From contig OX638340.1 of assembly GCA_951812955.1 (NCBI GenBank), forward strand, positions 448,001-512,000: a stretch of 64,000 nt of DNA, written 5' to 3'. Every line of letters begins with the position of its first letter. Position 1 is the first letter of the stretch. The stretch comes from an uncultured Gemmatimonadota bacterium (GTDB lineage: Bacteria; JAAXHH01). This document shows, piece after piece, positions 1 to 63,881 of the stretch. The notes under the pieces were generated by a model, which had not been told where the DNA came from, did not search any database, and saw nothing but the letters and a program-made list of their open reading frames with translations. The position numbers and the translations under genes were made by a program.

Positions 1-293
1 CTCCGGCAGATTTCGGCCATGAGATCGCTGAAAATGTACGGACGCAGGCTGGGGTTCTCCCGGTGCCGATTGGAAACGAAGTACCTCTTGCCCTTGTGAT
101 TGATTCCCCGTGTGGTCTCGTCTGCCTCGGCCATCTGGGCTTCCATTTCCTCGGTCAGCCGATCGCACTCGCCGCGTATGTACGCCAGCATCGCGTCGTC
201 CATGGCCGACTCGAGGATGAAGTACCCTTCCTCTTGGTACTGCTCTTTCTGTTCTACCGTTATTTCGACAGGTTGCGCCTTGGTTTCCGTCAT
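1..293 (-). CDS. Phytanoyl-CoA dioxygenase (PhyH) family Fe(II)/2OG oxygenase, N-terminal part only (gene runs off the window edge)
   Basis: The minus-strand ATG overlaps the SDR stop (TAATG). The translation [46 protein letters not shown]... matches the typical PhyH N-terminus (EQ..Q..EDGY..L). Not listed in the ORF track because it is truncated. Confidence 0.55.
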   Translation of the reverse strand, partial: MTETKAQPVEITVEQKEQYQEEGYFILESAMDDAMLAYIRGECDRLTEEMEAQMAEADETTRGINHKGKRYFVSNRHRENPSLRPYIFSDLMAEICR

Positions 294-2352: not shown

Positions 2353-2355
2353 GGG

Positions 2356-2443: not shown

Positions 2444-2466
2444 CATTCATTAAAAGGCCAACTGCA

Positions 2467-5477: not shown

Positions 5478-5493
5478 TCGAATTTTTGGCCGG

Positions 5494-12929: not shown

Positions 12930-13093
12930 GCCTTAAGCACCTGCCATTGGGGTTCATTCACTCCTGAAGCGCGGAAGCGAACGCTCCGCTTCACGCATTC
13001 TACTATATTCAGAGGACCGGGGGAGGAAAAAGGTTCGGTTTTTTTTCACACCCATCCGATCCGCCGGTAATATACCCTTAAATCGGGACTCCG

Positions 13094-17701: not shown

Positions 17702-17709
17702 ACGGGATC

Positions 17710-19389: not shown

Positions 19390-19420
19390 AAAACAAGACG
19401 GACCATCGCGGAAGACCAAC

Positions 19421-29876: not shown

Positions 29877-29953
29877 CGGCGCTTGCGCCAAGGGAAACCC
29901 GAGACGGTAATCCAGGTCTTGCGGGTGATCCGATATTATCGAAAGGAAGCAAC

Positions 29954-43603: not shown

Positions 43604-43611
43604 TAGCAGCG

Positions 43612-44004
43612 TTACCTGCCGTAGTAGTTTTCCAGATAGGTAAGAATGGTTTCTTCGGTTTTCGAATCGAATTTCTTCAATCCCTTTTCCGCCTGCATCC
43701 AACGGATAGCATCAAGCCACTCCGCGCGGTTCGCCCGATAGGAACGGATGATCTGGGTAGGATGGCATTGGGCGCATTCCCTTTCCACGACGGGGTAGCC
43801 GTCGCCCATGATCAGCCGGGTCCGGTGGTTCAGTTCCAGGCCCGTTCGCGGGTCGAACATCGTTACGGGCTTGGCCGCCTCGGCCCTGGCATTGGCCTGT
43901 GCGACTTTCGATCGCTCCGCTTCGTAGTAGATCAGACCGACTACCAGGACATCCAGGATGATGACGAAGGCAAACTGGCCAAGTACGCGCAGAAACGAAT
44001 TCAT
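43612..44004 (-). CDS. Putative membrane-anchored mono-heme c-type cytochrome
   Basis: 130 aa. N-terminal TM helix (FAFVIILDVLVVGLIYY) and a single CAQCH heme-binding motif. AGGAG 7 nt upstream of the ATG. Confidence 0.6.
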   Translation of the reverse strand: MNSFLRVLGQFAFVIILDVLVVGLIYYEAERSKVAQANARAEAAKPVTMFDPRTGLELNHRTRLIMGDGYPVVERECAQCHPTQIIRSYRANRAEWLDAIRWMQAEKGLKKFDSKTEETILTYLENYYGR

Positions 44005-46248: not shown

Positions 46249-46305
46249 CGTGTACCGAATCTATATGGCGGGGCGGACGCTGGGCCCGCCACGCTTTGTT
46301 CACCA

Positions 46306-46935
46306 CTAATCCAATGCACGAATTTTGACATTCTTGAAACGGATTTTGCCCTGGCCGAAGGCCTGCAGCACGACGACGCCGCTGTAATGGGAGGAATCCT
46401 GGATCTTAACGGCTTCTTCCCCGTTGAGCGTGACCGTGATGTCGCGTCCGTCGGCGGTGATGACCATGGTGTTCCACTGGCCTTCGGTTTTCGGTGGCGG
46501 TTCGTATATGGCCAGCGCCACGATGCTGCCCGTGGTATATCCCGAGCTATGGGTGTCTGCGATATTGATCTCGTAGAAAGAATACTGATTCACCCTCGCC
46601 CCGGTATCGCGCGGTCCCCGGACGAATACGCCGCTGTTATGTCCGGCGTCCTGGTTGAACTGCACACTCAGCTCGAAATCGGTGAATTCGTCGTAGGTAC
46701 CGATGTATCCGGGACCCCGGCCCGTTACTTCACCGGTGAGCATGCCGTCCTCCACCGTCCAGGTTGCCGTTCCGCCCCGGTGGGTCCATCCCAGGAGGGT
46801 ATTGCCGTCGAAAAGGAGCTTCCAGCCCGCCTCTTTCTCGGCGTCGGTCAGCATGTTGTCCTGCGCGGCGGCCGTGCCGTGTATACCGACAAGGATCATG
46901 ACGGCGGCCGCCACGCTCCACATGTAGCGTTTCAT
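46306..46935 (-). CDS. DUF1080 domain protein (3-keto-disaccharide hydrolase-like), secreted
   Basis: 209 aa. Signal peptide. GWKLLFDGNTLLGW near the N-terminus and a C-terminal IRFKNVKIR region, typical of DUF1080/PF06439. Confidence 0.8.
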   Translation of the reverse strand: MKRYMWSVAAAVMILVGIHGTAAAQDNMLTDAEKEAGWKLLFDGNTLLGWTHRGGTATWTVEDGMLTGEVTGRGPGYIGTYDEFTDFELSVQFNQDAGHNSGVFVRGPRDTGARVNQYSFYEINIADTHSSGYTTGSIVALAIYEPPPKTEGQWNTMVITADGRDITVTLNGEEAVKIQDSSHYSGVVVLQAFGQGKIRFKNVKIRALD

Positions 46936-46983
46936 TGCGTATCTCCTCTGTTTTTCGTTTGCTCAGGCTCTCAGTCTTTCCGA

Positions 46984-48990: not shown

Positions 48991-49246
48991 TACGCACTGC
49001 CTCCCATGATACAAATTAAATGATGCCGCGAATCGCATGGAAACCTGTCCGGATACGGGGATACCGGATCACACAGCAACAGGTCTGGCCTGCATGCCTT
49101 GGATTCCACGAATGCTCTGCAATTCAAACGCGATTTAACGCAAGTATCTCACCAATGTATTTGTCCGGATTACTGATGTAAAGCCCTTTGTGTCTGGTAC
49201 CGCCCGACGGCGCCGGTCTCGAAGGTGGTTTCACCGCGCAGGCGTC

Positions 49247-49855
49247 TCATCCCGGCAAAATGTAACTTTCCAATTCGTACTTGAGTCCATCGAGCGTCGC
49301 GTAATGATAACCGTGGATTCCGATTCCGGTTGCGGCGTCGACGTTTTCGATTTTGTCGTCGATGAACAGCGCCTCGCCCGGTTTGACACTTAAAAGATCT
49401 AACGCCGCATTGAATATCCCGGGATGAGGTTTGGCATGGCCGATCGAAGAGGAGTTGACTATGTGGTCGAATGTCCGGCTGATTCCCAGCCGCTTGAGAT
49501 CGGTTTCAAGCCGGGTCGTGGCATTCGTGACGAGCACCAGGCTCGCGCATTCGCGGCATTCCTGCAGAAGTTCCAGCACGTCGGTATCGATCTCGCCCGG
49601 CGAAAGAGACCACAATCGCACCGCTTCCGCCGCGTCTGCATCCGGAAAACGAAGCTGAAGACGTTCGGCAACCTCCGTCCTCCAGCTGGAATCCGAAATC
49701 CGGCCGGTGATGGCGCGTACCAGCAAGTCGGGTTCGAATGCAGTATTGGGAAGCGCGTCACGGGGAAGACCCGCGGCAGCTTCGGCCTGTTGAATGATCT
49801 CGGGGTCCCACTTGCGAACAACGCCGTCCAGATCTGTCAGAACCGCCTTGATCAT
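49247..49855 (-). CDS. HAD family hydrolase
   Basis: 202 aa with motif I DLDGV, a motif II Thr and the motif IV FIDD region. Confidence 0.85.
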   Translation of the reverse strand: MIKAVLTDLDGVVRKWDPEIIQQAEAAAGLPRDALPNTAFEPDLLVRAITGRISDSSWRTEVAERLQLRFPDADAAEAVRLWSLSPGEIDTDVLELLQECRECASLVLVTNATTRLETDLKRLGISRTFDHIVNSSSIGHAKPHPGIFNAALDLLSVKPGEALFIDDKIENVDAATGIGIHGYHYATLDGLKYELESYILPG

Positions 49856-49858: not shown

Positions 49859-51640
49859 TCAATATCTTCTCGGCCAGGGCATCTTGGGCGGACCGAAATC
49901 CGGCTCGCCCAGCAAGGGGGTCGACAGGCAGTAGAATCCGTGGTTGGCGAACAGCCAGACCAGGTTGCGGTCGTATTCCACATAGATGCCATGGGTCAGA
50001 TTGCCCAGTGCGTAGTCCGGGGTCCGGGATGGATCGAATTTCGGCACGAAGAAAGCGGTGATTTTCGGGTCGGAAAGGTCGGAGACATCGAAAACCTGAA
50101 CGCCGGCGTTGTAAAAGGCATAGAGAAGGATGTCTTCCTTGGGTGTACCGGGCTGGGTATAATAGCCGCTTCGTTTCGGACCGAAACTCCCGCGCCGCTG
50201 CACGAAATCCGTGAAGGGGGCGTCCGCGGGCGGTACCGGTCGGGGCAACGTGCCAAGCAGCCTGGGATTGGCGGGATCATTCACGTCGATCATGAAGATG
50301 TCTTTATACGGCTCCCAACCGTCCTCGTTCAGGGGATATCCGGAAAAATAGACCACACCGGTCTTTTCCATCTGCGTTACGTTGATGTAATCTCCCTCCG
50401 TGCCTGCTACGCTCGGGGGAAAGTTCAGGTGCCCCAGCGCCTTGATATCTGCCGGGTCCGATAGGTCCAGCGCGTAGAACCCGAGGCCGCCCATGGCGGC
50501 GTATCCGTACCTGCCGCCTTCTTCAACCGGTTTGGGCATGAAAATCGACATGCGGGCGCCGAACCAGGATGTCCGGTTGCCGGCGCGGGGATTGGCCCGG
50601 TAGGCGGCTTCATCTTCTGGATTCCCAAGTCTCTGGCCAGGTACGTTGAACTGGCTGATAAACACCGGATTGGCCGGGTCGGACATGTCCCAGGCCTGGT
50701 AGCCGGCCGAGTACAGGTCGCTCGGGTATTCGGTAAGCGCGTATTCCGCACTGGGCGCCGCGGCAACGAACATGTACTCGCCGCCGTGATAGGCGGGAAT
50801 ATCCCGAACGCCGGATCCCTGTTGCTGCCCGACAGGCGCATCGGGGTTTTCGTAGTCGGTGGTTCGCTCCGCCAGCAGCGTCCAGTCCGCCGGCAGGGGG
50901 CCGTTCATTTCATATACCTTGAATCCCTTGAGGTGATTGGCGTTTCGAATGGCTTCCACCTTGTCGGGTTCCGTGCGCTTGTCGTTGAGGACGCCGAAGC
51001 GGCGGATCTCGAAGGCCTGGACCATGACGTACTTGTCCAGGTCCTCGTTCCACTGGATGGACGCGGCGCCGAACATGTCGCCTTCGTCATAGGGGTTGAC
51101 CTCTTCGCCCGGTCCTTCCCCGGTCCAGGTGCTTCCCTTCTCGTGTACGACCTTCAAATCCTTCGGATCGGTGATATCATAGATTTTCAGGGCGCGGCGG
51201 ACGTACTGGTACATGTATCGTCGGCCGTCGAAATCGACGATGTTCTGCCAGGTATGGAACGGTTCGACCGTGATCGGGTAGTAGGCCTCGACGGTCATGT
51301 CCTTCGCGTACTCGTTCGTATCCCAGTAGTCTAGCTGGCCTTCAAATGGTTTGGATTCATGCTGATGGGGCGTGGCCGCCGGGTAGATGAATCGGCCGGT
51401 TTCCGGATCCATGCCGTAACCGGCGGGATCGGGTTCGGGTGGCGTACGGTCCTCCGCCAGCGCGTCGGCCCGGATGACGTATTCGTCGGTAACGGGCGGC
51501 GGTGCAGGCGTCTCACTGTCTGGGGAAGTACCGCAGGCCAGGGCCGCACTCAGGCAAATAACAATTCCAATGAGTGTAGTCTTGTCGCGTAAATGGCGAT
51601 GGTTCGATACATCAGCGTGGCGTTTTGGATTCATTAGCAT
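49859..51640 (-). CDS. LVIVD-repeat beta-propeller lipoprotein (function unknown)
   Basis: 593 aa. Signal peptide with lipobox (LSAALAC). Repeated LVIVD-like blocks (KIYDITDPKDL; GFYALDLSDPADI; FMIDVNDPANP; VQVFDVSDLSDPKI). Confidence 0.6.
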   Translation of the reverse strand: MLMNPKRHADVSNHRHLRDKTTLIGIVICLSAALACGTSPDSETPAPPPVTDEYVIRADALAEDRTPPEPDPAGYGMDPETGRFIYPAATPHQHESKPFEGQLDYWDTNEYAKDMTVEAYYPITVEPFHTWQNIVDFDGRRYMYQYVRRALKIYDITDPKDLKVVHEKGSTWTGEGPGEEVNPYDEGDMFGAASIQWNEDLDKYVMVQAFEIRRFGVLNDKRTEPDKVEAIRNANHLKGFKVYEMNGPLPADWTLLAERTTDYENPDAPVGQQQGSGVRDIPAYHGGEYMFVAAAPSAEYALTEYPSDLYSAGYQAWDMSDPANPVFISQFNVPGQRLGNPEDEAAYRANPRAGNRTSWFGARMSIFMPKPVEEGGRYGYAAMGGLGFYALDLSDPADIKALGHLNFPPSVAGTEGDYINVTQMEKTGVVYFSGYPLNEDGWEPYKDIFMIDVNDPANPRLLGTLPRPVPPADAPFTDFVQRRGSFGPKRSGYYTQPGTPKEDILLYAFYNAGVQVFDVSDLSDPKITAFFVPKFDPSRTPDYALGNLTHGIYVEYDRNLVWLFANHGFYCLSTPLLGEPDFGPPKMPWPRRY

Positions 51641-52781: not shown

Positions 52782-52976
52782 ATGTAGCTTCTCCTGGATA
52801 ATGGGTCCAACCGGCGCGCATGTATTCAGCCGCAGGGCGGATCAGTACACCGGTTGGCCGTGTTGCGTTTTTGGCGGTATGCCGGACTTCCAGGCCAGGA
52901 TTTTGCGGAGAACAACCGGGCTCAGAAGCAGTGAGGAAGGATGAAAAACAAGTCGTAAGAATCTGGAAATATCGGA

Positions 52977-53050
52977 TCGGGGCGGGGAGATTTGAACTCC
53001 CGACCTCCTGCTCCCGAAGCAGGCGCGCTGACCGGGCTGCGCTACGCCCC
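52977..53050 (-). tRNA. tRNA-Pro (anticodon CGG)
   Basis: The minus strand reads GGGGCGTAGCGCAGCCCGGTCAGCGCGCCTGCTTCGGGAGCAGGAGGTCGGGAGTTCAAATCTCCCCGCCCCGA. It has a cloverleaf with T-loop GGTTCAAATCC-like and anticodon loop UUCGGGA. Confidence 0.85.
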
Positions 53051-53099
53051 GATATGTGTACAAACAGGAGCAAGGACCCGGCGGGCTGCCTTGCCGAAA

Positions 53100-53173
53100 T
53101 CGGGGCGACTGGATTTGAACCAGCGACCACCAGCCCCCCATGCTGGTGCGCTACCTGACTGCGCTACGCCCCG
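53100..53173 (-). tRNA. tRNA-Pro (anticodon GGG)
   Basis: The minus strand reads CGGGGCGTAGCGCAGTCAGGTAGCGCACCAGCATGGGGGGCTGGTGGTCGCTGGTTCAAATCCAGTCGCCCCGA, with anticodon loop AUGGGGG. Confidence 0.85.
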
Positions 53174-53252
53174 AAACTTCGGCGTGTAATTTACGGAGGC
53201 AGGGGGTTTCAGGCAAGGGAATTTTTCGGTGTCAGATCGTGGTCCGGCGTGG

Positions 53253-54209
53253 TCACATACGGCCGCGTGCCTGTTCGACAAACCATAGGTGGTCGGCGCG
53301 GATCAGGGATTCGTCCCGTTCGGCAGTGGCGAGAAAACCGAGTTTGTTCACGACGCGCAGAGCGGTGTACAGGTCCCACCACGGCAGGCAGCCGAAGTCC
53401 ACCCGATTCACGGATTCGTAGTACCGGGTGAAGGCGTCCATTATGTCTGGTCCGTAGAGCATCAGGATCTCGAACCGGGCATTCGACACGTCGTAGAGGG
53501 GATCCCCCAGGCGCGTGTCTTCCCAGTCGATGACCGCAGTGAGCCGGCCATCCCGCCAGAGCGTATTCCCCGGCCAGTAGTCTCCGTGCAGGACGACCGG
53601 AGTGTTATTCAAGGACAACGGCCAGCGTGGATTAAGCAGATCCAGCAAAGTACGTTCATCGGCCGAGACCAGGGCAGGATCACTTTTTCTACAAAACGCT
53701 TCGGTACAGTCATCCTCCAGCTTCAGCAGGAAATCGAGATCCCGTCCGGCCAGATCCATCTGGTGGACCTTGGCCAGTTCGCCCGCCATCTGCATCACGT
53801 AGTCCGTGGGATCATCGGGTTTCAGGTCGGTAACGCCTTCCATGTATTCCACGACGAGGGACGGCGTAGAGAACAATGGGTCGTTCGAGTCCAGGTAAAC
53901 CGGATTGGGCGTGGCCAGGCCTGCCGCGTGCGTTAACTGAAGGACCCGGAACTCGTCCGCGGCCACGTTCGGGTTCTGCTGAAGGTCGACCTCGCCGTGC
54001 AGACGGTGAATGAGTTTCCTCATCGTACCATCCGATAACTCGATTTCCAGGACGGTCACGTCGGCCGAATAACCACCGGGCAGGCTGAGATGGCGCTTCA
54101 GCCTGGCGTGCGGATTGAATCTGTGGACCAGTTTCTCGAACCGACTGGATTCGTCTACAGTTGCCATGTGTCTCAAGTACAGTTGGTTTCCCGACCAAGC
54201 CCGGACCAT
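53253..54209 (-). CDS. Phosphotransferase enzyme family protein (APH/CHK kinase-like)
   Basis: Kinase-like motifs VVLHGDYWPGNTLW (catalytic HGD) and AVIDWEDTRLGDP (DWE/DFG-like). The start may be the internal MATVDESSRF (54167). Confidence 0.8.
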   Translation of the reverse strand: MVRAWSGNQLYLRHMATVDESSRFEKLVHRFNPHARLKRHLSLPGGYSADVTVLEIELSDGTMRKLIHRLHGEVDLQQNPNVAADEFRVLQLTHAAGLATPNPVYLDSNDPLFSTPSLVVEYMEGVTDLKPDDPTDYVMQMAGELAKVHQMDLAGRDLDFLLKLEDDCTEAFCRKSDPALVSADERTLLDLLNPRWPLSLNNTPVVLHGDYWPGNTLWRDGRLTAVIDWEDTRLGDPLYDVSNARFEILMLYGPDIMDAFTRYYESVNRVDFGCLPWWDLYTALRVVNKLGFLATAERDESLIRADHLWFVEQARGRM

Positions 54210-54214
54210 ACCGG

Positions 54215-54300
54215 ACTAAACCGACCGATCCGGCCCAAACCGACCGATCCGGCCCAAACCGACCTATTCTGACCCAACCAGACCGATCTGGACCGGACAT
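54215..54300. repeat. Intergenic degenerate tandem repeat of a ~19-20 nt unit
   Basis: aaaccgaccgatccggccc appears twice exactly, flanked by degenerate copies (ccggactaaaccgacc...; aaaccgacctattctgaccc; aaccagaccgatctggaccgg). Confidence 0.65.
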
Positions 54301-54320
54301 TCCAGTTCGCCGAAGGATGC

Positions 54321-55769
54321 CTATTCACCCGGGTAGTCGATCGCCCACCTACCCTCGAGATTTCCGCTGCCGCTCGTTCTGCTCCAGAGGGAAACCACGT
54401 CGGCCGGTGCGTTGTTTTCCGCAAGATGAGCAAGAAACAGTGCGTGCAGGTCATCCAGTGTGTCCACGTTGTCGTCGGCGATATTGTTTTGGGTCAGGCG
54501 GTCATTCGAAAGGTCGTAGAGCTCAGGCCTGCCGTCGGCTCCGACCGGTGCGTAACCCCAACGATCCGTAACGAGGAATGGCGTCGTGGCCCGTCGGGGC
54601 AGGCCGTCACCCGGCATCGCGATGTGGCATCCGCTGACTGCGTAGTCGCGATGGGTCGGCCGGCCATCCAGCACGGCGGGGGCGAAGGAGGCTCCATCGA
54701 AAGGCTTCGGTGGTTCGACCGTGACGGCGGCCAGGTCGCAGAGACTCGGGAACAGGTCGATTGTCTGTGCGATCAGGGGCAGCCGCGTACCTCGGGGTAC
54801 CGCGCCTCCGGCCAGCATCAGCATGACGTGGCCGATCTCCGGGTAGATGGGCCAGTACCTGCCGTCGTCCTCCTGAATGTTTGATTTCCCGGTCCGATCG
54901 TGTTCTCCGATGGACATGCCGTGGTCCGACATGACGGCCACGATGGTGTCATCCCACAGTTCGAGGTCGTCGATCTTCCGCAGGACCTGGCCGATGTGAC
55001 GGTCCACGAGTTCCGCTTCTGCCGCATAATGGGCCCACAGGTTGTGAAGTTCCTCCGGCGTATAGGCGGACGATGGGCCGTAGTTCGGATGCAGCATGGG
55101 CGGACCCGAATAGTCGGGATCGTAGCGTCGCACCAGGTATTCCGGCGGATCCCAGGGTTCGTGGGGATCGAAGAAATCCACCCACAGGAAAAACGGGTTG
55201 GATTCGGCGTTCTCCTCGAGCCAGCGGATTGCGGTCTGCGCCGTCCCGGCCGAGAAGACTTCGGATTCATATCGGTAGTACCGGTTGAGCCAGCGGTGCT
55301 GGTTGACGAGCGTATGCCCGCGAAACCTGGGGTTTATACGGGTTTTTTCGTCCCGGACGACGACATCGACGGGGTCGTTGAGGTGGAGCAGCGGTTTGTC
55401 GCCTTCCTGTCCACGATGCTGGTACGCCGCGTCGAAACCATCGGGGAAACGGGCCTTGAACAGGTGGGGACAGTCACAGATCAACTGCGTGGCGTATCCC
55501 TGTTCGCCAAGCATCCTGCCAGCGTGGTTGGGACCGCTCCGGTCGATGGCCTGCCATCCGTAGTGGGGCCATCCCGTAACGCCCGTCGCAAAATCGGTCC
55601 GGTGCGGGATTGTGGGGAAGCTGCCCATGTGGCACCGCGTGATCTCCGTGGCCCGTTCCGCTCCGAAGCGATCCAGCTCGGGCGTGCGAACGGGACGCTC
55701 CGCACGGCTTCCCAGGTTGTCGTGGCGAAAGGTATCCGTAATGAGTACGACGATGTTCTTCGGCATCAT
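54321..55769 (-). CDS. Sulfatase-like hydrolase/transferase (alkaline phosphatase superfamily) with Thr in place of the catalytic Cys/Ser
   Basis: The N-terminus NIVVLITDTFRHDNLG is followed by T-I-P-H-R-T-D-F-A-T-G, which aligns to the sulfatase C/S-x-P-x-R-x4-T-G signature with Thr at the nucleophile position. A downstream VAVMSDHGMSIGEH block is also present. Confidence 0.75.
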   Translation of the reverse strand: MMPKNIVVLITDTFRHDNLGSRAERPVRTPELDRFGAERATEITRCHMGSFPTIPHRTDFATGVTGWPHYGWQAIDRSGPNHAGRMLGEQGYATQLICDCPHLFKARFPDGFDAAYQHRGQEGDKPLLHLNDPVDVVVRDEKTRINPRFRGHTLVNQHRWLNRYYRYESEVFSAGTAQTAIRWLEENAESNPFFLWVDFFDPHEPWDPPEYLVRRYDPDYSGPPMLHPNYGPSSAYTPEELHNLWAHYAAEAELVDRHIGQVLRKIDDLELWDDTIVAVMSDHGMSIGEHDRTGKSNIQEDDGRYWPIYPEIGHVMLMLAGGAVPRGTRLPLIAQTIDLFPSLCDLAAVTVEPPKPFDGASFAPAVLDGRPTHRDYAVSGCHIAMPGDGLPRRATTPFLVTDRWGYAPVGADGRPELYDLSNDRLTQNNIADDNVDTLDDLHALFLAHLAENNAPADVVSLWSRTSGSGNLEGRWAIDYPGE

Positions 55770-55864
55770 AGCCCTTTCGAGTCCTGAAGTTGTGGGACAT
55801 TATGGACGCGCAAATCTGTATACATTGAATCAGGCCACCGGGAAACCGCGGTGTTTCCCCGTGC

Positions 55865-56710
55865 TCAACCGGCGATTCGGCAGGCATCCAGGTATAGGTC
55901 CACCGACGCTTTCAGGGTCATCTCCCCGCGCATCACCTGATCTTCATAGGCTCGGTACCAGCCTGGAATCAGCGACCGGGCTTCGCGGAATTCGGCGAGG
56001 ATGAGCCGGGCGAAGTCACCGCTCTCCTCCAGGTACCCGGAATCGTCGAAACACGCGATCGCCCGGGCCCGGTCATAGTCGAGCCGTATGATCTCAGCCT
56101 TCCACGCTCCATCCTCTAATGTCATCTGGGCATAGGCCGCGCGGGGATCGCCGTCGAAAGGCGCGCCTACCGCGCCCACGTTGACGACCAGGGTGCCGTC
56201 CACGTAACGGATCAGGGGCCGGTGCGTGTGTCCCACCAACAGGACCTTCGGCGCGGGAGCGATTTTCTCGCGCAGCGATTCTTCTGTATCATCGGGGAAG
56301 ATGCCCTTGCGGTCTCCCAGCATGGACGCGTGTACCATCCGGATCTCGTTTCCCGATTCGTCTATCATGTCCCACTGGACGGGTAAGTCCTCGAGCGGTT
56401 CGACGAGGCCGTTCAACTGGTCGAATGTCCATTTCGCGTGGCGGGTTATCTCGTATTCCGGGCCGTGTTCGGCCAGGGTCCCCTCAACGTATTTCAGGAC
56501 GTATCTTTCGTGGTTGCCCCGTATGACCGCCCAGTTTTCGGCCCTGGCGCGTCCGAGTACGCTTTCGGTGCAGGCGCGCGGATTCGGGCCCCGGTTGATT
56601 ATGTCGCCCGCGACGAGTACGCGATCGGGGCGCCAGCGATCAATATGGGCGAGGACGGTTTCCAGCGCGTCCAGGTTGCTGTGCACGTCGGCGAATACGG
56701 CGATCTTCAT
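55865..56710 (-). CDS. Metallophosphoesterase (calcineurin-like phosphoesterase family)
   Basis: DVHSN, GDIINRGP and GNHE motifs. Its start ATG overlaps the stop of the upstream gene (ATGA). Confidence 0.85.
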   Translation of the reverse strand: MKIAVFADVHSNLDALETVLAHIDRWRPDRVLVAGDIINRGPNPRACTESVLGRARAENWAVIRGNHERYVLKYVEGTLAEHGPEYEITRHAKWTFDQLNGLVEPLEDLPVQWDMIDESGNEIRMVHASMLGDRKGIFPDDTEESLREKIAPAPKVLLVGHTHRPLIRYVDGTLVVNVGAVGAPFDGDPRAAYAQMTLEDGAWKAEIIRLDYDRARAIACFDDSGYLEESGDFARLILAEFREARSLIPGWYRAYEDQVMRGEMTLKASVDLYLDACRIAG

Positions 56711-58938
56711 GGTGATTTGGGTTTGATTATTTGTTCAGTCGACAGGAATCGACGCAACACGTTGGCTACGATCCTGGATATGTCGTTGCCGCCCTCGTTG
56801 TAAAGCAGGCTGCCGCAGAAGGTAATGGATCCCGTAGAAAAGAGCTGGCTGCCTGTATCCGACTGCTGGTAAACCATGTCCGCCCGAACCAGTCTATCGA
56901 TCGGTTCTCCGGACCAGGTGGTGATGTGGGTAAGCAGTTCCTCCGGAACGGGAATGAAGGACTCGTGATGGTTTTCGGAACTTGCGATGACGCGCGTATT
57001 TTCGGGCGTTCCCAGCCGATGGTCGGCCCGGTCGAGTTCAAATCCGGCCGCCCCGTTGCCGCTGAAACCATAATCACCCACGGTTTCGCCCGTCACGCCC
57101 TCGAAGATCCACGCGGTCTCGGGGTTGGTGCGTGCGTCCGGGCTGATACGGTAGTACGATCCGTGAAAGTTGCCCTGTGCGGAAAACCCCACGGCCGCAA
57201 GCTGCTGCGGGGGACGGCCGTTCCTGCGCCAGAGTCCCCCGTAGCCGCCGTCGAAGGCGTGGTAGTACTCGCCAGGTTCCGCCGCCCAGGCCCGGATGCC
57301 GCCTTCATTGCGCCGGATTTCCAGCGTTCCATTGTCTTCCGGGTGGACGGCGATACGCCAGTAGAATCCGTTGCCGCCCAGGTACATGAAGTGGCCGCCC
57401 CGTTCCCGGTACTGTCGCAATGCGTCGAGCGTGCGGGGCGTATGGTATTCCGGATGTGAACCCGTGGTCACGGCGCTATATTCTTTGATCGCCTCGTAAC
57501 CGTCGTCGTGCAGTTCCTGGTCGGTGACGATGTCGAAGGGGATCCCCATCTTTTCGAGCCACGCGTACAGGTGGGTGTCCGCCTGCAGATGCCGCAGCCC
57601 CGAGCAGTCCCCTTCTGTGGCGCCGAAGGTGATGTAGCCCGGCCGTAGGGAGAAGAGAGGGCGCCTGTGACTGGCATGGCAGATGCCACTCCCGTCGGTG
57701 TGGAAATTGTAGGTTGAAAGCCCGTATTTCCGGTACACCGCGGGATTCCAGGGATAGGCGTTCCATGCGCTGATCCGGTCCAGCCAGGACGGCTCGAAGT
57801 TGGGGCGGGCGTGGTTGCCATAGATGGTATAGGTGAAAGTGGACGCCAGTACGCAGAGATCCGCTGTCGGTCTGCCTCTGGGCGGACAGACATAGAACGG
57901 CATCATGTCCTCGTGCTCACCGCAACGGATACGGGCCGCGTATAGTCCCGACTTCATGCCACTTGGAATCGTGAACGTGAAGTCGGTTTCCCAGCCGAAG
58001 TCGTAGATGTCGTCTTCGTGGAAGTGTATGGCGCCGTACTGGTCCGGCGCGTGCTTCCAGGACATCTCCTCACCGGTCCACGTCGAACCGGTCATGGCAC
58101 GGACAGGCATGTTGACCAGGCGGCCTTGCAGTGACAGGGGGCCGACGTCCACCACCCGGGTCGAACTCGTGTCCCGGGCGAAGTCCCACAGAGCCCAGGC
58201 GCCTCGATGGTCTTTGATGTCGTATTCGTGGTCGTCAGTCTCTTCCACCGGAACGTCTACGAGGGCCGGCGCTTCGATCTTTCCATTGAAATGGCCGCTA
58301 ACGGGATCGCCGTCTACGCCGCCGAATATGATCCGTGCCACGTCGTCGATAGAAACGGACCCGATGGCCGCGACCGTGAAATTGGCCGGTCCAGGCAGCG
58401 CGTCCAGCGCGCGGAATCCCACGCTCACCGTGCCGTTTCCGGCATCGTAACTGGCCCACACCCGGTACCATCGCCTGGCCTTGATCGGCTCGCTTCGGCA
58501 GGTGATGAGGCGCTCCTGGTTTGCCGATAATTGGACTGCAACGGTTAAAGCGGCGCGGTCCAGGCAAAGACTCAGCACCGGCTTCCGTTCGCTGTTGCCG
58601 CAACTTACGATGCCCTGGCGTACTTTTTGAGGGGTCGTCGGCCAGATGGTGGCGGAGATGGAAATGCCATAGTCAGATTGGAAGCGGCCGTCTAGCGGGA
58701 TGACGGCGTGGGAGCCCGGATCGAACGGTTGAGACCTGGAAGGGAATTCGCCGCCGAAGGAAAGGTCCACGTCCTTGATTTGCAGGCCAGGACCAGCCGG
58801 ATTGGGATCGGCGCAGATCACGCGGACGAGACTGGCGTGAAAGGGCTCCCGGGCTTCGCTGCTTACCTTGAAGGCGATTTCGTCGCCGGGCCGGCCGGAC
58901 AACCGGTCGGAGTAGCCCAGTAAAGGAATTTCGTTCAT
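56707..58938 (-). CDS. Large hypothetical protein, possibly N,N-dimethylformamidase beta-subunit-like
   Basis: 743 aa, no TM segment. My tentative recollection is that it resembles the DmfA2-like large-subunit family. Its start overlaps the PhyH stop (TAATG) and its stop overlaps the next start (ATGA). Confidence 0.45.
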   Translation of the reverse strand: MNEIPLLGYSDRLSGRPGDEIAFKVSSEAREPFHASLVRVICADPNPAGPGLQIKDVDLSFGGEFPSRSQPFDPGSHAVIPLDGRFQSDYGISISATIWPTTPQKVRQGIVSCGNSERKPVLSLCLDRAALTVAVQLSANQERLITCRSEPIKARRWYRVWASYDAGNGTVSVGFRALDALPGPANFTVAAIGSVSIDDVARIIFGGVDGDPVSGHFNGKIEAPALVDVPVEETDDHEYDIKDHRGAWALWDFARDTSSTRVVDVGPLSLQGRLVNMPVRAMTGSTWTGEEMSWKHAPDQYGAIHFHEDDIYDFGWETDFTFTIPSGMKSGLYAARIRCGEHEDMMPFYVCPPRGRPTADLCVLASTFTYTIYGNHARPNFEPSWLDRISAWNAYPWNPAVYRKYGLSTYNFHTDGSGICHASHRRPLFSLRPGYITFGATEGDCSGLRHLQADTHLYAWLEKMGIPFDIVTDQELHDDGYEAIKEYSAVTTGSHPEYHTPRTLDALRQYRERGGHFMYLGGNGFYWRIAVHPEDNGTLEIRRNEGGIRAWAAEPGEYYHAFDGGYGGLWRRNGRPPQQLAAVGFSAQGNFHGSYYRISPDARTNPETAWIFEGVTGETVGDYGFSGNGAAGFELDRADHRLGTPENTRVIASSENHHESFIPVPEELLTHITTWSGEPIDRLVRADMVYQQSDTGSQLFSTGSITFCGSLLYNEGGNDISRIVANVLRRFLSTEQIIKPKSP

Positions 58939-59750
58939 TAGCTACCCGGAAGTAGTTCGTCGTCCGGCCGCCGCTCGCGGTAGCCGCAGACCATCAGACC
59001 GGGCCGACCGAAGCTTTGGCCGTATTCCTGCCTGTTATCGGGATTCCGGTAGCCCATGCGAACGAGTCTCCGCGGCCGTTTCGTCTGGTTAATGTAGGAA
59101 CCGTGCACGGTATCGATGCAGAACAGGACCACGTCGCCTGCCCTGGCCGGAACGGGCACCGTGTCTGCCAGATTGTACTCGTTCGTGGGCAGGTGCGGCG
59201 CACAGGGTCCCTCTTCCGTTTCCGTGATGTGCTGGAGATGGCCGGATTTATGAGATCCCGCCAGGAAGCGGATTTCGCCGTTTTCGTGACAGGTATCGTC
59301 CAGGTGCACGAGGACGTCGATGTACCGGCCGTCGTGATGGCCGTAAAAAGGGTTGTCCTGGTGCAGGGGAAATGGATGGCCTGTCTGGGGCGGCTTGATA
59401 TGCAGCGTGGTGTGGTGCAGCTCCACGTTCGGACCCAGCAGCTGCGACAGGGCCTCGACCAGCCGGGGATTGGCTACCGCACGAGACCAGGCCTGGGAAT
59501 AGAAATGGAGGTCGTGCATGGCCGTAAGCTTAGACCTGGCCTCCGTTTCCGGATCCATATACGCCAGGCGCCAGGGACCGTTCCACCCCGGGCTCGTGAA
59601 AGCCCAATCCTCGACGAGCCGGTCCATTTGTGCTGAAAGTTCGGCCGTTTCTTCCGGCGTGAAGATCTCCGGGATGTGGAGAAACCCATTTTCATGGTAG
59701 AACGCGATCCGCTCGTCGCTCAGCACGGTTTGTTCCATGACCATGGTCAT
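58938..59750 (-). CDS. Phytanoyl-CoA dioxygenase (PhyH) family Fe(II)/2-oxoglutarate-dependent oxygenase
   Basis: 270 aa. N-terminal FYHENGFLHIPEIFTPEE. HxD...H facial-triad context (PLHQDNPFY ... FLAGSHK). Typical PhyH length. Confidence 0.85.
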   Translation of the reverse strand: MTMVMEQTVLSDERIAFYHENGFLHIPEIFTPEETAELSAQMDRLVEDWAFTSPGWNGPWRLAYMDPETEARSKLTAMHDLHFYSQAWSRAVANPRLVEALSQLLGPNVELHHTTLHIKPPQTGHPFPLHQDNPFYGHHDGRYIDVLVHLDDTCHENGEIRFLAGSHKSGHLQHITETEEGPCAPHLPTNEYNLADTVPVPARAGDVVLFCIDTVHGSYINQTKRPRRLVRMGYRNPDNRQEYGQSFGRPGLMVCGYRERRPDDELLPGS

Positions 59751-59907
59751 TGCTGATTCTCCTTGTTGGGTTTGCGTGCGGGGAGTTTAAGGCGTTTCCT
59801 TCCCTTCGAATTTAGCAAGTCGGGCACCGGCAGGCAACACCATTTCAACGCGATGCGCAATCGGCTGGTTGGAATTCCTCACGTAGGCTGATCGCCTCAT
59901 CCAAAGA

Positions 59908-60888
59908 TCACGAACGGTACACTTCAGCCAGAAGTTCGTATGACCGCAACCGGGCTTTGAAATCATGGGTGATGGTGACGGCCATGATCTCTTCAGCGCC
60001 GAACTGGTCCGCAAGCCGGTCGATGGTGTCCCGGACCTGCTCCGGACTGCCCACGGCCGCGAGCCGGAACTTGTCGTCGAGGAATGCGCGTTCGGCTTCA
60101 CTGAACTGGTGCTTCTCGGCCTCCTCCACCGTGGGCACGACGTTGCTAGGCTTGCCCGATGCGAAACGGGCGAAGAGCAGATCGCGGCTCAGGGCGAGAC
60201 GTCGGGCTTCCGCCTCGGTGTCGGCGCAGATGACGTTGATCGCAATACAGGTCTTGGCCTGGGGCGACTGGGTGGACGGCTCGAAATATTGGCGATAGAA
60301 TTCCAGGATGCGCGGGTCGATGTTGCTGTTGATGAACAGGGCAAAATTGTAGGGGAGTCCCAGACGGGCCGCCAGCATGGCGCTATCGGGACTGGAACCG
60401 AGCATCCAGACCGGAGGCGGAGACAAGATGGGCGGTGTGACCCGCGGCTCGAAATCCTTGTCTTGCAGGATCTCCACGAGTTCAGCAACCAGATCGGGAA
60501 ACTGATCGAACCGGGGTCCGGCGCCGGGCGACAGCATCCGGGCGGTCTTCATGTCGCCGCCGGGCGCACGGCCGACCCCCAGGTCGACGCGGTCCGGGTA
60601 GAGATTCGTGAGCACGGAGAAGCTTTCGGCGACCTTGAAGGGACTGTAATAGGGCAGCATGACGCCGCCGGACCCGATCCGCATGCCTCCCGTGGCGGCT
60701 CCGATGGCCGCGAGCAACACTTCGGGCGAACTTCCGGCCAGGCAGTGGGCGTTGTGGTGCTCGGACACCCAGAAGCGCTTGTAACCCAGGCGTTCAGCCG
60801 TTCTGGCCAGGGTCAGGGTCTCCTGGAAGGCCTGCACCGCCGTGACGCCTTCCCGCACGGGGGACTGATCGAGTATGGACAGGTTCAT
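59908..60888 (-). CDS. LLM class flavin-dependent oxidoreductase (luciferase-like monooxygenase)
   Basis: 326 aa. N-terminal LARTAERLGYKRFWVSEHH, typical of bacterial luciferase-like proteins. Confidence 0.9.
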   Translation of the reverse strand: MNLSILDQSPVREGVTAVQAFQETLTLARTAERLGYKRFWVSEHHNAHCLAGSSPEVLLAAIGAATGGMRIGSGGVMLPYYSPFKVAESFSVLTNLYPDRVDLGVGRAPGGDMKTARMLSPGAGPRFDQFPDLVAELVEILQDKDFEPRVTPPILSPPPVWMLGSSPDSAMLAARLGLPYNFALFINSNIDPRILEFYRQYFEPSTQSPQAKTCIAINVICADTEAEARRLALSRDLLFARFASGKPSNVVPTVEEAEKHQFSEAERAFLDDKFRLAAVGSPEQVRDTIDRLADQFGAEEIMAVTITHDFKARLRSYELLAEVYRS

Positions 60889-60948
60889 TAATCAGGATTC
60901 CTATTCGTTACCAGGTTCAATTTAAACGGTTAGGTCGGGATCGCCCGA

Positions 60949-62931
60949 CTACCAGCCGTCCACGATATGGCCCGCGCCCGGAAACCAGGCCGCGTCCACC
61001 AGAAAGGTCAGAAAGACGCCGAGGACATAGCCCGCGAGAATGCCAATAAACAGGGGTTGTGCCTTGCGGTACAGCGATACGCCGCCGAGACGCAGGATCA
61101 CCGTCTTGATCAGCCAGACGATCAGAATGGAAAAGAAAGCCATGTCGGCCGCGTAGGTGGTCACGATCCCGAATCCCACGGGATGGAGGGGCCAGAAATG
61201 CAGCCGGTGATGGGCCCAGATCAGGAATCCCGAGATCAAAATCCCGTTCAACACCATGGTCAGCTGAGGTTGTGTCATGGCCTGAGGATTGGTCAGGAAG
61301 GTCTCCAACTGGGCCCAGTATCCGCTCGCGCCGGACTGAAAACCGCCGGCCTGGAGCTGGGACGCGCCCATGTCATACCCCAGGTACAGCGTGTACACGA
61401 TGGCCGTCATGAATCCGATGAAGAGTGAAAGGGCAATGGCGCCGAAAACGCCCCGGCCCACGCCGCCCATGACGTCCCCCACCTTGGCGGCGTGCGCCAT
61501 CGAACACATCCCGAGCGTCCGCCAGTTGCGCGTAAAGGTCTGGCAGAGCCACATCCCCGTGATCGTGCGGGCATTGATGTGCTCCGACCCGACGAACCGG
61601 AACGTGATCTCGTTGGCGCTGTTGTACGGCAGGTCCAGGGACGCCAGGCCGGTCTCGGCCACTACGCGGGTCACGCCGATGTACAGAACCAGCAGCACGA
61701 ACATCATGAGCATCACGACCCAGAGCGTCATGCCCGCGCTCCACAGGAGGAAAACCATGTAAAGCGAACCGCCGGCGAAAGATAGGACGGCCGTGCGATA
61801 GGAAAAGAACTCCCGTGTATCATCGATTTCCGGCGCTTTGCCGAATGCCTTCCGAAACACGTCACGGATATGCCTGCGTGCCATCCACAGACCGAACAGC
61901 ACGAAAATGAAAAAGCCGGACAGATGTTGAAAGTGCATCATCTCGAGAGGACCGGGGACGCCGACCCGCGTCATCACGCCCTGTTGAACGATGCGGATGA
62001 GATAGAACAACCAGACGCTGAGCAGCACCTCCACCCTCGTGAAGTACGCCACCCCGATCAGCAGGAAATTCAGGCGGACCTGGATCGGGTGGAAGGCTTC
62101 ATACAGGGTCAGGGGAAAGGCGTGCCCCGCGCCGAAAGGGATGGCGGGGAACAGATCGAAGAAGCTGAACATATTCCAGGTCATGATAAACAGCGTGATG
62201 CCGAACCCCCACCAGAACAGGCGCACGCGGGCAATCCTCGGGAACAGGGCCGTTTCTTCGGCCCCGTCGACCAGCGTCAATGGCACCTGGGCTAGCGGGA
62301 AGGTCAGCCGTTCGTGTTCCACCCACTGCTTCCGCAGGATGACCATGATAGACGCGCCGACCAGGAAGAGGGCGATGTAGAATGTTATCCACCAGAACAT
62401 GGGCACCCACCAGATTTGCCATCGGATGGTTGTTCCCGAATACACGCCTTCATAGAATTGGTTCAGACCGCCCAGGTTGTCCCGCACGACCAGCCAGGAA
62501 GGAAGGTAGTCGAGGAAAAGTTCCGCCCAGCGGTTTTCGGGGTTGGCGTAGTAGAAAGGACCGCTGATGATCGAGACCGCGTAATTGCTGAAGGCCCATC
62601 CGGGGATGGCGGACGCCGTGAAGACCAGGAAGAAGATCACGATCAGCTCCTGCCGGCTGAATGGACGGCCGTAACCCGCCTTTTTCAATACCGGGTTGAC
62701 CAGGAGTACCATCAGCAGGAAGGGCAGCAGCGCGGCGACGGGCAGGTGGGTGACCGTGATGAAGGATCCGCGCGTGACGAATTCGGAGGAGAGCGACCAG
62801 AGCGTCAGTAGGACGGTGAAGACGCATCCTATGGCCACGGCCCGTAGGGTAAGGCCGGCGGAAACGGGTTGCTTTACAGGCGGAGGCACGGTGGCCTGTC
62901 GGCCGGTCTGGGGCGATGAGACAGTGGGCAT
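60949..62931 (-). CDS. Large polytopic membrane protein of an unrecognised family (paralog of 31785..33770)
   Basis: 660 aa with many TM helices. It shares FYYANPENRWAE, LRKQWVEHERLTFPL, FGLWMARRH, EFFSYRTAV, RVVAETG, LDLPYNS, TRNWRT and WPLHPVG with the first copy. Confidence 0.8.
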   Translation of the reverse strand: MPTVSSPQTGRQATVPPPVKQPVSAGLTLRAVAIGCVFTVLLTLWSLSSEFVTRGSFITVTHLPVAALLPFLLMVLLVNPVLKKAGYGRPFSRQELIVIFFLVFTASAIPGWAFSNYAVSIISGPFYYANPENRWAELFLDYLPSWLVVRDNLGGLNQFYEGVYSGTTIRWQIWWVPMFWWITFYIALFLVGASIMVILRKQWVEHERLTFPLAQVPLTLVDGAEETALFPRIARVRLFWWGFGITLFIMTWNMFSFFDLFPAIPFGAGHAFPLTLYEAFHPIQVRLNFLLIGVAYFTRVEVLLSVWLFYLIRIVQQGVMTRVGVPGPLEMMHFQHLSGFFIFVLFGLWMARRHIRDVFRKAFGKAPEIDDTREFFSYRTAVLSFAGGSLYMVFLLWSAGMTLWVVMLMMFVLLVLYIGVTRVVAETGLASLDLPYNSANEITFRFVGSEHINARTITGMWLCQTFTRNWRTLGMCSMAHAAKVGDVMGGVGRGVFGAIALSLFIGFMTAIVYTLYLGYDMGASQLQAGGFQSGASGYWAQLETFLTNPQAMTQPQLTMVLNGILISGFLIWAHHRLHFWPLHPVGFGIVTTYAADMAFFSILIVWLIKTVILRLGGVSLYRKAQPLFIGILAGYVLGVFLTFLVDAAWFPGAGHIVDGW

Positions 62932-63050
62932 GATGTCAGTGGATTCCAGGAGAGGAGGGGGCTGGACTGCGTCCTACGTTACGCGTCAACTCTAGGCGTA
63001 CGTAAATCAACTGTACTATGTGTTCCCGGGCAGCTCAAGGACATAGGGAA

Positions 63051-63881
63051 TCAACGGTTCTCAACACAGTTCCTGAGCTTTTCCAGACCCTTTTGAGCCG
63101 TGGTTACCGGTCCTTCGGCCCAGTACGCCGGATTGAACAGTTCCAGTGAAAGCATGCCCCGGTAATCCTGCTGTTCCAGGCTGGCCACGATCTCGTCCCA
63201 GGGCGCTTCGCCGTCGCCCGGATAGACCCTGTGCTCGTCCTCGATATCCACGTGGGCGGGTACCGCTGGATAGTCGTTCACGTGGACCAGACCCAGCCGG
63301 CCGGGACCGAGGTAATCCATCCCCCGCTGGTGTCCGCTTCCCTTGTACATGTGGAAGATGTCGGTCAGTAGCCTGGCATCTCGCACGCCGCTTTCCGCGG
63401 CGACGAGAAGGGCTTCGCCGACCGTGCCCAGCGTGCGGGCTATTCCCCAGAATTCCAGCAGGGGTTTCGGGGAGAAATCCGAAACGGCATCCGAAAGTTC
63501 GGCAAATCTCCTGGCGACAGAAAACAGGTCGACCTCCCGGTCGTGGATCCCCTTCGGGGCCGTGGCTACATAGGGGCATTCCAGGTCCTGGGCCATCTTG
63601 AAGCACCGTCTCGCTTCTTCAAGCCCTCTGGCATGGCGGTCGGTTTCGGGAACCGCCCATTCGAAAAATGCGATCAGGTTCACGATACGGATCCCGCGGC
63701 TGTCCGCGCGTTCGCGAATCTGTTCCACCGTTCCGCCTTCTTCGACCCAGGCATCGATTTCCTCTGCCCAGGGTTCAATGCCGTCATACCCGGCATCGGC
63801 CGCGATATCCACGTATTCCAGTACGGAAACTCCGGGCGACCGGATCGTGCTGGTATTGAGGCAGTAGTCAAAACGTCCCAT
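63051..63881 (-). CDS. Sugar phosphate isomerase/epimerase (xylose isomerase-like TIM barrel)
   Basis: 276 aa with a xylose-isomerase-like TIM-barrel pattern (GYDGIEPW, LVHVNDY, SLELFN). Confidence 0.85.
   Translation of the reverse strand: MGRFDYCLNTSTIRSPGVSVLEYVDIAADAGYDGIEPWAEEIDAWVEEGGTVEQIRERADSRGIRIVNLIAFFEWAVPETDRHARGLEEARRCFKMAQDLECPYVATAPKGIHDREVDLFSVARRFAELSDAVSDFSPKPLLEFWGIARTLGTVGEALLVAAESGVRDARLLTDIFHMYKGSGHQRGMDYLGPGRLGLVHVNDYPAVPAHVDIEDEHRVYPGDGEAPWDEIVASLEQQDYRGMLSLELFNPAYWAEGPVTTAQKGLEKLRNCVENR

Follow-up and report, generated by a model that had tools for sequence, protein, structure and literature searches.

An uncharacterised, clade-specific accessory gene block around a predicted iron-dependent acylase in Latescibacterota-like bacteria

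The closest described relatives of the protein around which this study turns are two solved amidohydrolases. The large subunit of N,N-dimethylformamidase (DMFase), DmfA2 (PDB identifier 6LVB), belongs to the three-domain family PF20254, holds a 2-Tyr-1-Glu Fe(III) site with the ligands Y399, Y440 and E521, depends on the essential residues H519 and N547, and is inactive alone, the small subunit being needed for activity (PMC7686228). The other enzyme is N-acetyl-(R)-β-phenylalanine acylase (PDB identifiers 8HUY, 8I59 and 8I5A), whose deposited entries list one polypeptide in two identical chains. Here we analyse a block of eight minus-strand open reading frames (ORFs), one of which encodes a 743-residue relative of both enzymes, in a 64,000-nucleotide stretch of DNA (the window; positions 448,001 to 512,000 of contig OX638340.1, assembly GCA_951812955.1) from an uncultured Gemmatimonadota bacterium. 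The ORFs span 53253-63881, and all of them lie at the coordinates given in a preliminary description of this DNA or directly follow them (Table 1). The block is of an ordinary kind, an uncharacterised set of accessory genes that is confined to one clade and drawn from large enzyme families. We tentatively read it, with a confidence a little short of even, as an accessory, probably catabolic or salvage block of a Latescibacterota-type marine or sponge-associated bacterium, arranged in two neighbouring expression units and directed at an N-acyl, peptide-like substrate.

The 743-residue protein matches PF20254 (DMFA2_C) with an E-value of 5.8e-89 (299.6 bits against a cut-off of 27). Its closest solved relative is the N-acetyl-(R)-β-phenylalanine acylase (PDB identifier 8HUY), with which it aligns over the full length at an E-value of 4e-193 (647 bits, 44% identity over 725 positions), and the DMFase large subunit (PDB identifier 6LVB) is more distant (E-value 5e-130, 439 bits). 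The DMFase residues Y399, Y440, E521, H519 and N547 align to Y373, Y410, E497, H495 and N523, respectively, and all five are invariant in 22 homologues. The small subunit of DMFase is a protein of about 15 kDa, and in DMFase loci its gene is, we assume, to be expected directly 5' of the large-subunit gene. At the two positions adjacent to the window gene, to which the comparison was confined, no such gene is present, the PhyH gene lying directly 5' and the metallophosphoesterase (MPE) gene directly 3'. The window gene differs from the solved acylase in its known setting between these two. Because the acylase is the closer relative, because PhyH occupies the small-subunit position and because DMFase requires its small subunit, the protein is predicted to be a single-chain Fe-dependent amidohydrolase (acylase) and not a DMFase. 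The label "DMFase-like" given earlier thus holds for the family and the iron site, and the protein is better described as being of the N-acetyl-β-phenylalanine acylase type. The family match and the retained iron ligands are also what a true N,N-dimethylformamide (DMF) degradation locus with a genuine DMFase would show. The three points just named, and the wide occurrence of this acylase family in marine bacteria beside nutrient transporters, make such a locus very unlikely. DMF is a synthetic solvent and an unlikely substrate in a sponge symbiont. Literature searches on DMFase in sponges or metagenome-assembled genomes (MAGs) and on β-phenylalanine acylase retrieved no paper on this cluster.

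Two of the seven junctions in the block are stop/start overlaps, TAATG at 58938 between the PhyH and acylase genes (1 nt) and ATGA at 56707-56710 between the acylase and MPE genes. The remaining five are gaps of 119 nt (TIM barrel/membrane protein), 60 nt (membrane protein/luciferase-like flavin oxidoreductase, LLM), 157 nt (LLM/PhyH), 95 nt (MPE/sulfatase-like gene) and 111 nt (sulfatase-like gene/kinase), so that the coupled cluster of the preliminary description shrinks to three genes. Stop/start overlaps are commonplace in bacterial operons, another one occurs elsewhere in the window (29873-29876), and the overlaps do not demonstrate the stoichiometric co-expression that had been read from them.

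The region 5' of the PhyH gene was aligned between the window and 12 related loci. TTGC and TAnATT blocks with sigma-70-type spacing are kept in all 12 related loci, and in the same alignment an AGGAG is conserved ahead of the PhyH ATG. The pattern TTGC-N19-TANATT occurs twice in the 64-kb window against 0.14 occurrences expected, both times intergenic and on the minus strand; one copy sits 58 nt 5' of the PhyH start codon and the other (53188-53216) 13 nt 5' of a tRNA-Pro gene. The motif accompanies PhyH in the loci L097 and L099 despite different gene neighbours. In L002, a locus of a close relative, an unrelated gene for a 796-residue FtsX/MacB-like permease (L002 6703-9093, same strand) is inserted exactly in the LLM-PhyH gap. 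Because of the conserved motif and this insertion, the block looks like at least two expression units, viz., TIM barrel-membrane protein-LLM and PhyH-acylase-MPE, the latter probably continuing through the sulfatase-like and kinase genes. The strongest statement that these data allow is that PhyH, acylase and MPE would be co-expressed from their own predicted promoter. The sulfatase-fold enzyme with threonine at its nucleophile position (Thr-type) and the kinase are probably carried by the same transcript; neither the TTGC...TAnATT motif nor any other conserved block was seen 5' of the sulfatase-like gene in the relatives compared. That all genes from the TIM barrel down to the sulfatase-like enzyme form a single operon is not supported, given the gaps of 60-157 nt, the conserved internal motif and the insertion in L002. 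The TIM barrel and membrane protein genes had been placed at the head of the coupled genes, a view not supported by the position of the motif between LLM and PhyH. An Rfam scan matched solely two tRNAs and found no riboswitch in the 157-nt leader, and a generic scan for sigma-70 sites and terminators gave fewer hits than it did on shuffled sequence and did not pick up TTGCCT-N17-TAAATT. This sequence is a candidate promoter consensus for the source lineage.

More than 4,600 homologues of the acylase reach E ≤ 1e-10 among 8,000 candidates scored. A pattern scan across the GTDB species, with one genome for each, yielded 582 confirmed homologous stretches, of which the best 80 loci were examined with flanks of up to 10 kb on each side; a scan for PhyH covered 80 metagenome loci. 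The block is present in 5 of the 80 acylase genomes, those with the closest acylases (79-86% identity), and is collinear in them from the TIM barrel to a pyrroloquinoline quinone (PQQ)-dependent dehydrogenase gene. All five carriers are MAGs of sponge or marine origin and bear the label Latescibacterota, "Gemmatimonadetes" or "bacterium". Among the 80 PhyH loci, the block is kept solely in the same clade (L090-93 and L101). Two deeper members, L082 and L085, with acylases 63% and 70% identical to that of the window, retain the order TIM-(transporter)-LLM-PhyH-acylase-MPE-sulfatase-like-kinase-…-PQQ; both are without the FAH gene and a gene for a 593-residue protein, and L082 is also without the membrane protein gene. 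Intact copies (L002-5, L008, L082, L085 and L090-93) persist down to a protein identity of about 60% and show a PhyH-acylase-MPE spacing of -4 to +5 nt in all of those found. The MPE gene lies directly 3' of the acylase gene in all 13 clade loci that reach past the latter (13/13), and the kinase gene, which is absent from the preliminary description, is a member of the conserved run, following the sulfatase-like gene in L002-L005, L008, L082, L085 and L090 and being the last gene before the tRNA genes in the window. The gene combination is thus restricted to one small Latescibacterota-like clade, of which one branch has a broken block, and a conserved cluster in phylogenetically distant genomes was not found among the 80 acylase and 80 PhyH loci.

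Several observations weigh against a common function of the block. The other 75 of the 80 acylase loci (44-66% identity) are, with the exception of one weak PhyH match, without PhyH, MPE, sulfatase-like, LLM or TIM barrel genes within 10 kb at an E-value of 1e-3. These loci belong mostly to Alpha- and Gammaproteobacteria, with some from Poriferihabitaceae, Dehalococcoidia, Acidobacteria and another Latescibacterota, and one acylase orthologue of 62% identity is monocistronic. The acylase therefore appears to work without block partners in most lineages, and homologue neighbourhoods that are unlinked outside one clade speak against the dedicated, linked pathway proposed earlier. PhyH orthologues of 64-83% identity are likewise found in a variety of other contexts. 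Rearrangement has affected L096 and L097, with PhyH 4.6 kb away from acylase-MPE, GrpB, aldo-keto reductase and M14-like genes in between, and the TIM barrel, LLM, sulfatase-like and kinase genes absent; their neighbours include M24, 2-oxoglutarate (2OG) oxygenase and beta-lactamase-type hydrolase genes, and the acylase of L097 lies among M24, M14 and beta-lactamase-type genes. Collinearity within the clade exceeds the block, since Peripla_BP_2/ATP-binding cassette (ABC) genes on the 5' side and the PQQ dehydrogenase, 3-keto-disaccharide hydrolase and TonB receptor genes on the 3' side are also conserved, and conservation within the clade is for this reason weak evidence of functional linkage. 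The window holds three TIM barrel, three GFO/IDH/MocA and two DUF6785 genes, and since genomes of this type carry several copies of the families in the block, adjacency by chance is not unusual. Finally, the promoter at PhyH is itself a prediction from a motif, and no precedent was found for a metallophosphoesterase beside an amidase.

These points lend weight to the alternative that synteny is all there is, i.e., that the genes encode independent accessory enzymes which stand together because their carriers are related, the overlapping trio or the acylase-MPE pair alone being co-regulated and no substrate being shared. We regard this as a real possibility that nevertheless falls well short of probable. 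It would fit the insertions and losses at inter-gene gaps (the FtsX-like gene of L002, and the missing DUF6785, FAH and 593-residue protein genes of L082), and every component has orthologues in unrelated contexts. It is opposed by the order PhyH-acylase-MPE-sulfatase-like-kinase, which is kept down to 59-79% protein identity with the first three genes overlapping or nearly so, and by the fixation of an apparently laterally acquired PhyH directly 5' of the acylase gene, which is easier to explain by selection for co-expression.

The substrate class of the preferred reading, a salvage block acting on an N-acyl peptide-like compound, derives largely from acylases outside the clade. Their neighbours include an ABC ATPase cluster (19 loci), Opp/Dpp-type permeases (9 and 7), family-5 binding proteins (8), tripartite ATP-independent periplasmic (TRAP) transporters (7), amidases (9), LysR regulators (9), M24 hydrolases (6) and class-III aminotransferases (6). 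For example, a Roseovarius chromosome (L060) carries the order LysR-TRAP-acylase-IS110-aldehyde dehydrogenase-aminotransferase-M24. Based on these transporter and enzyme contexts and on the solved acylase, we infer that the family acts on small, peptide-like N-acyl amino compounds. The contexts, together with the oligopeptide transporter (OPT)/Yellow-Stripe-Like (YSL) fold predicted for the DUF6785 protein of the block, point to a peptide-like substrate. We hypothesize that a small peptide-like or N-acylated amino compound, possibly phosphorylated, would be taken up by a peptide-type carrier and that the acylase would cleave its amide bond. PhyH may then hydroxylate the substrate or one of its products, and the kinase and two phosphoesterases may turn over a phosphate ester on the same or a related compound. 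The acylase clusters of Rhodobacteraceae (L060) and other Proteobacteria (L041-L069) follow the pattern LysR-TRAP or Opp/Dpp-acylase-amidase/aldehyde dehydrogenase/class-III aminotransferase/M24, which in Rhodobacteraceae resembles the layout of compatible-solute (ectoine-type) catabolic loci. By analogy, this layout hints at small N-acyl diamino or amino acids as the compounds that the acylase family deacylates. An ectoine-like catabolic role for the block itself, drawn from the Roseovarius context, was not adopted, and the resemblance is kept as a hint on the acylase family only.

The PhyH protein matches PF05721 with an E-value of 1.3e-31 (111 bits against a cut-off of 22) and shares with ectoine-hydroxylase-type dioxygenases the fold, the HxD…H iron triad (H130, D132 and H216) and the 2OG-binding arginine (R227), the four residues being invariant in 19 orthologues. 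It differs from EctD and PhnY* in falling far under the corresponding NCBIfam equivalog cut-offs (64 against 336 bits for the ectoine hydroxylase model TIGR02408, and 52 against 500 for the PhnY* model NF052437) and in forming its own tight orthologue group, with 64-97% identity across phyla and varied gene neighbours. Copies from Caldilineaceae (Chloroflexota; L087-L089 and L102-L104) are 79-83% identical to the window PhyH and duplicated in tandem, in the setting TIM barrel-Cys-type sulfatase-unknown gene-PhyH-PhyH-GMC oxidoreductases (two GMC genes). Such identity across phyla points to a lateral transfer in recent times, which may have taken place between sponge symbionts. Given the 83% identity to Chloroflexota copies, PhyH was probably acquired laterally and then fixed directly 5' of the acylase gene in this clade. 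A second PhyH gene had been reported at 1..293 of the window; the 97-residue fragment there has no Pfam match, aligns to the PhyH of the block with a pairwise E-value of 0.05 and finds its best PDB match at 0.75, and that assignment is not confirmed.

Three proteins of the block are likely to handle phosphate. The MPE matches PF12850 (E-value 2.5e-22, 80 bits) and PF00149 (1.5e-17), has its best PDB matches in 3RQZ and 3QFM, carries a C-terminal extension of about 80 residues, and shows the catalytic motifs D8-V-H10, G35-D36, G65-N-H-E68 and GHTH in its translation. The kinase matches PF01636 (E-value 3.8e-28), finds hygromycin-B 4-O-kinases as its best PDB matches (9e-8) and contains the motifs HGDYWPGN and IDWED. 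Both keep their catalytic motifs and resemble generic family members only. The third protein, a sulfatase-like enzyme, matches PF00884 (E-value 1e-23, 84.6 bits against a cut-off of 25). The earlier observation that it is Thr-type holds: T53-I-P-H-R stands where sulfatases carry C-x-P-x-R, and T53 aligns with the cysteine that is the precursor of formylglycine. An exhaustive search recovered 263 cluster representatives of the subfamily at E ≤ 1e-30, and the query was aligned with 108 full-length sequences among the best 150 representatives (P0361-P0510). The formylglycine position is occupied by threonine in 102 of the 109 aligned sequences, by cysteine in 6 and by serine in 1, within the motif SFPT[IVL]P.R.D..TG, and most members align from residue 2, i.e., without a long N-terminal leader. 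As read from the alignment, D12 and D282-H283 match the metal ligands of EfAS, which has the pattern of phosphonate monoester hydrolases (PMHs; PMC12421950). The enzyme therefore shares with the arylsulfatase/PMH branch (EfAS and the PMHs) both the fold and the Asp/Asp-His ligand pattern, and differs from it in carrying threonine at the nucleophile position, which in that branch is a cysteine or serine converted to formylglycine. Threonine cannot be converted in this way, and the protein is for that reason predicted to be a phosphoryl-transfer enzyme, probably a phospho(di)esterase and not a sulfatase. The conservation of the threonine across the subfamily also makes the earlier "phospho-type" reading reasonable. 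A type I (formylglycine) sulfatase was excluded as C/S-x-P-x-R is absent, though the fold and the Asp/Asp-His ligands are present, and the locus as a whole was rejected as a sulfatase locus. The motif T-x-P-[NH]-R-x-D-x-x-T-G presumably recalls the threonine nucleophile motif of nucleotide pyrophosphatase/phosphodiesterases, and to our knowledge no member of this subfamily is characterised. Literature searches on Latescibacteria sulfatases and on Thr-type sulfatases returned nothing on this cluster. The single subfamily representative whose context was looked up lay on a 2-kb contig. Matches on plasmids are less than 33% identical, mix Cys and Thr types and have uninformative neighbours, among them a sugar ABC transporter (Rhizobium) and IS elements (Martelella).

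Three phosphate-handling enzymes beside an amidase, together with the weak resemblance of PhyH to the PhnY* methylphosphonate hydroxylase model (E-value 7e-14), are the grounds for a different reading, in which one dedicated pathway from the TIM barrel to the sulfatase-like enzyme would process a phosphorylated or phosphonylated N-alkyl or lipid compound, e.g., an N-acyl aminoalkylphosphonate or a host phosphono-sphingolipid. Marine invertebrates are rich in phosphonolipids. This pathway is unlikely, since the PhnY* score lies far below its cut-off and that of the ectoine hydroxylase model is higher, since no domains of the PhnZ, PhnX, PhnW, PhnA or C-P lyase types occur among the annotated ORFs of the window, and since the promoter-like motif divides the TIM barrel, transporter and LLM genes from the others. 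The fold of the transporter and the acylase contexts elsewhere also favour peptide-like over lipid substrates. The window yielded nothing that is specific to phosphonates or lipids and would sustain the phosphonylated or lipid substrate suggested by the preliminary description.

The proteins of the first expression unit are less specific in their signals. The TIM barrel matches PF01261 with an E-value of 4.6e-30, scores far under every NCBIfam equivalog cut-off, has IolI (PDB identifier 1I60, E-value 7e-10) and the N-terminal domain of a QuiC-type dehydroshikimate dehydratase as its best PDB matches, and by sequence belongs to a generic sugar isomerase/epimerase/dehydratase family. The LLM matches PF00296 (E-value 1.4e-43) and scores 373 bits against a cut-off of 167 with TIGR03558 (MsnO8). 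The 660-residue membrane protein matches only DUF6785 and DUF6784 at E-values up to 0.01, with no Pfam OPT match. An alignment of 37 sequences gave a confident AlphaFold model (predicted local distance difference test, pLDDT, 85; predicted template modelling score, pTM, 0.84), which shares the OPT/Yellow-Stripe fold with solved members such as barley YS1 (PDB identifiers 7WSR and 7WST), from which the protein differs in sequence, the identity being only 12-14%. The protein, correctly reported earlier as a membrane protein but left there as "unknown", is thus predicted from its model to be a secondary transporter of the OPT/YSL fold. Characterised members of this group carry oligopeptides and amino-acid-derived metal chelates. 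Among the homologues retrieved, almost every named one belongs to Latescibacterota, Zixibacteria or a MAG labelled Gemmatimonadetes or Gemmatimonadota. The gene of this transporter, absent in L082, is an optional member of the block. A second DUF6785/6784 gene (31785-33770, minus strand), 35% identical to the first, lies directly 5' of another TIM barrel gene (30835-31653), and the transporter-TIM pairing is thereby seen twice in 64 kb, with opposite gene order. DUF6785 genes occur within 6 kb of PhyH and Cys-type sulfatase genes in three of four other genomes (L170, L171 and L173); a TIM barrel gene stands at one of these loci, and DUF6785 is present in tandem at two. The association may be genuine or may mirror no more than the abundance of these families. 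A functional tie of DUF6785 to PhyH, sulfatases and TIM barrels was not adopted, the sulfatases being Cys-type and the families so numerous that chance adjacency is plausible.

The IolI-like TIM barrel and the kinase, whose best matches are aminocyclitol kinases, also raise the view that TIM barrel, kinase and phosphoesterases act on a sugar or cyclitol derivative that is N-acetylated and phosphorylated, together with the PQQ dehydrogenase, 3-keto-disaccharide hydrolase (3keto-disac_hyd) and TonB receptor encoded downstream, the acylase serving as deacetylase. The synteny of these downstream genes in L082 and L085, the three GFO/IDH/MocA genes and the two further TIM barrels of the window would agree with it. 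The similarities are family-level only (E-values 1e-7 to 1e-10), in the window the block and the PQQ gene have two tRNA genes and three further genes between them, and the OPT/YSL fold is not that of a sugar-carrier family, all of which leaves a sugar or cyclitol route with little likelihood. A more specific and, in our judgement, improbable form of the peptide-like reading is that the five-gene unit running from PhyH to the kinase constitutes a dedicated, undescribed route in a sponge- or seawater-associated Latescibacterota clade for the breakdown of one phosphorylated, peptide- or chelator-like N-acyl compound, which would be imported via an unrecognised bacterial carrier of the OPT/Yellow-Stripe type.

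The features of the block are collected in Table 1. Pfam and NCBIfam agree with the earlier domain calls (AP_endonuc_2, DUF6785+DUF6784, Bac_luciferase, PhyH, DMFA2_C, Metallophos and Sulfatase), and the strand and positions of the genes described earlier stand. As the preliminary description had stated, no known pathway was matched in Pfam, NCBIfam, the PDB or the literature, and in the same sources we found no curated family model, solved structure or paper that describes the gene combination.

Table 1. Genes and other features of the block, in the direction of transcription
Feature	Coordinates	Strand	Family or basis
TIM barrel (xylose-isomerase-like), 276 aa	63051..63881	-	PF01261
DUF6785+DUF6784 polytopic membrane protein, 660 aa	60949..62931	-	Pfam DUF6785, DUF6784
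Luciferase-like (LLM) flavin oxidoreductase, MsnO8/YhbW subfamily, 326 aa	59908..60888	-	PF00296, TIGR03558
Promoter-like motif TTGCCT-N17-TAAATT	59809..59837	-	58 nt 5' of PhyH start codon
PhyH-family Fe(II)/2-oxoglutarate dioxygenase, 270 aa	58938..59750	-	PF05721
Predicted amidohydrolase, DMFase large-subunit / N-acetyl-(R)-β-phenylalanine acylase family, 743 aa	56707..58938	-	PF20254
Calcineurin-like metallophosphoesterase (MPE), YfcE/MJ0936-like, 281 aa	55865..56710	-	PF12850, PF00149
Sulfatase-fold enzyme, arylsulfatase/phosphonate-monoester-hydrolase branch, 482 aa, cytoplasmic	54321..55769	-	PF00884
19-bp tandem repeat, 4.4 copies	54211..54294	.	TRF score 103, 81% matches
APH-fold small-molecule kinase, 318 aa	53253..54209	-	PF01636
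Downstream boundary: motif copy 53188-53216 and tRNA-Pro genes 53099-53174, 52974-53052	52974..53216	-	ARAGORN, Rfam, motif searches

These results do not overturn current understanding; their value lies in better annotation and a few testable enzyme targets. For marine proteins annotated as "DMFase", iron-dependent acylase appears to be the better reading, with a link to peptide-type and TRAP transporters, the sulfatase-fold subfamily with the conserved threonine is probably misannotated as sulfatase, and DUF6785/6784 may, on the strength of the model, be assigned to the OPT/Yellow-Stripe transporter fold. Should the PhyH-acylase-phosphoesterase unit act on a single compound, this would indicate a nutrient drawn by sponge-associated and pelagic Latescibacterota from their surroundings. 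If the five-gene dedicated route were true, it would provide the first physiological roles for the Thr-type sulfatase-like subfamily, the marine DMFase-like acylases and DUF6785.

The 19-bp tandem repeat (CCGGACCAAACCGACCGAT) occupies the whole spacer between the sulfatase-like and kinase genes. The length of this spacer varies in the relatives from about 2 to 80 nt and is far shorter in some of them. On the 3' side of the tRNA genes, the minus-strand region 44053-49855 encodes a HAD hydrolase, a PQQ-dependent dehydrogenase, a 3-keto-disaccharide-hydrolase (DUF1080) protein and a TonB-dependent receptor. All of these except the HAD hydrolase gene keep their synteny with the block in L082 and L085. 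Four ORFs of 362-593 residues (12954-14402, 15575-16663, 42584-43702 and 49859-51640) have no Pfam match above threshold; the 593-residue one shows faint beta-propeller matches only and is conserved beside the block in close relatives. The window also encodes two ABC systems of the Opp/Dpp type, together with family-5 binding proteins (1279-7662 and 16712-20341), an M3 oligopeptidase (24946-27036) and an M55 D-aminopeptidase (29873-30766), and this genome region is generally rich in genes for peptide uptake and breakdown.

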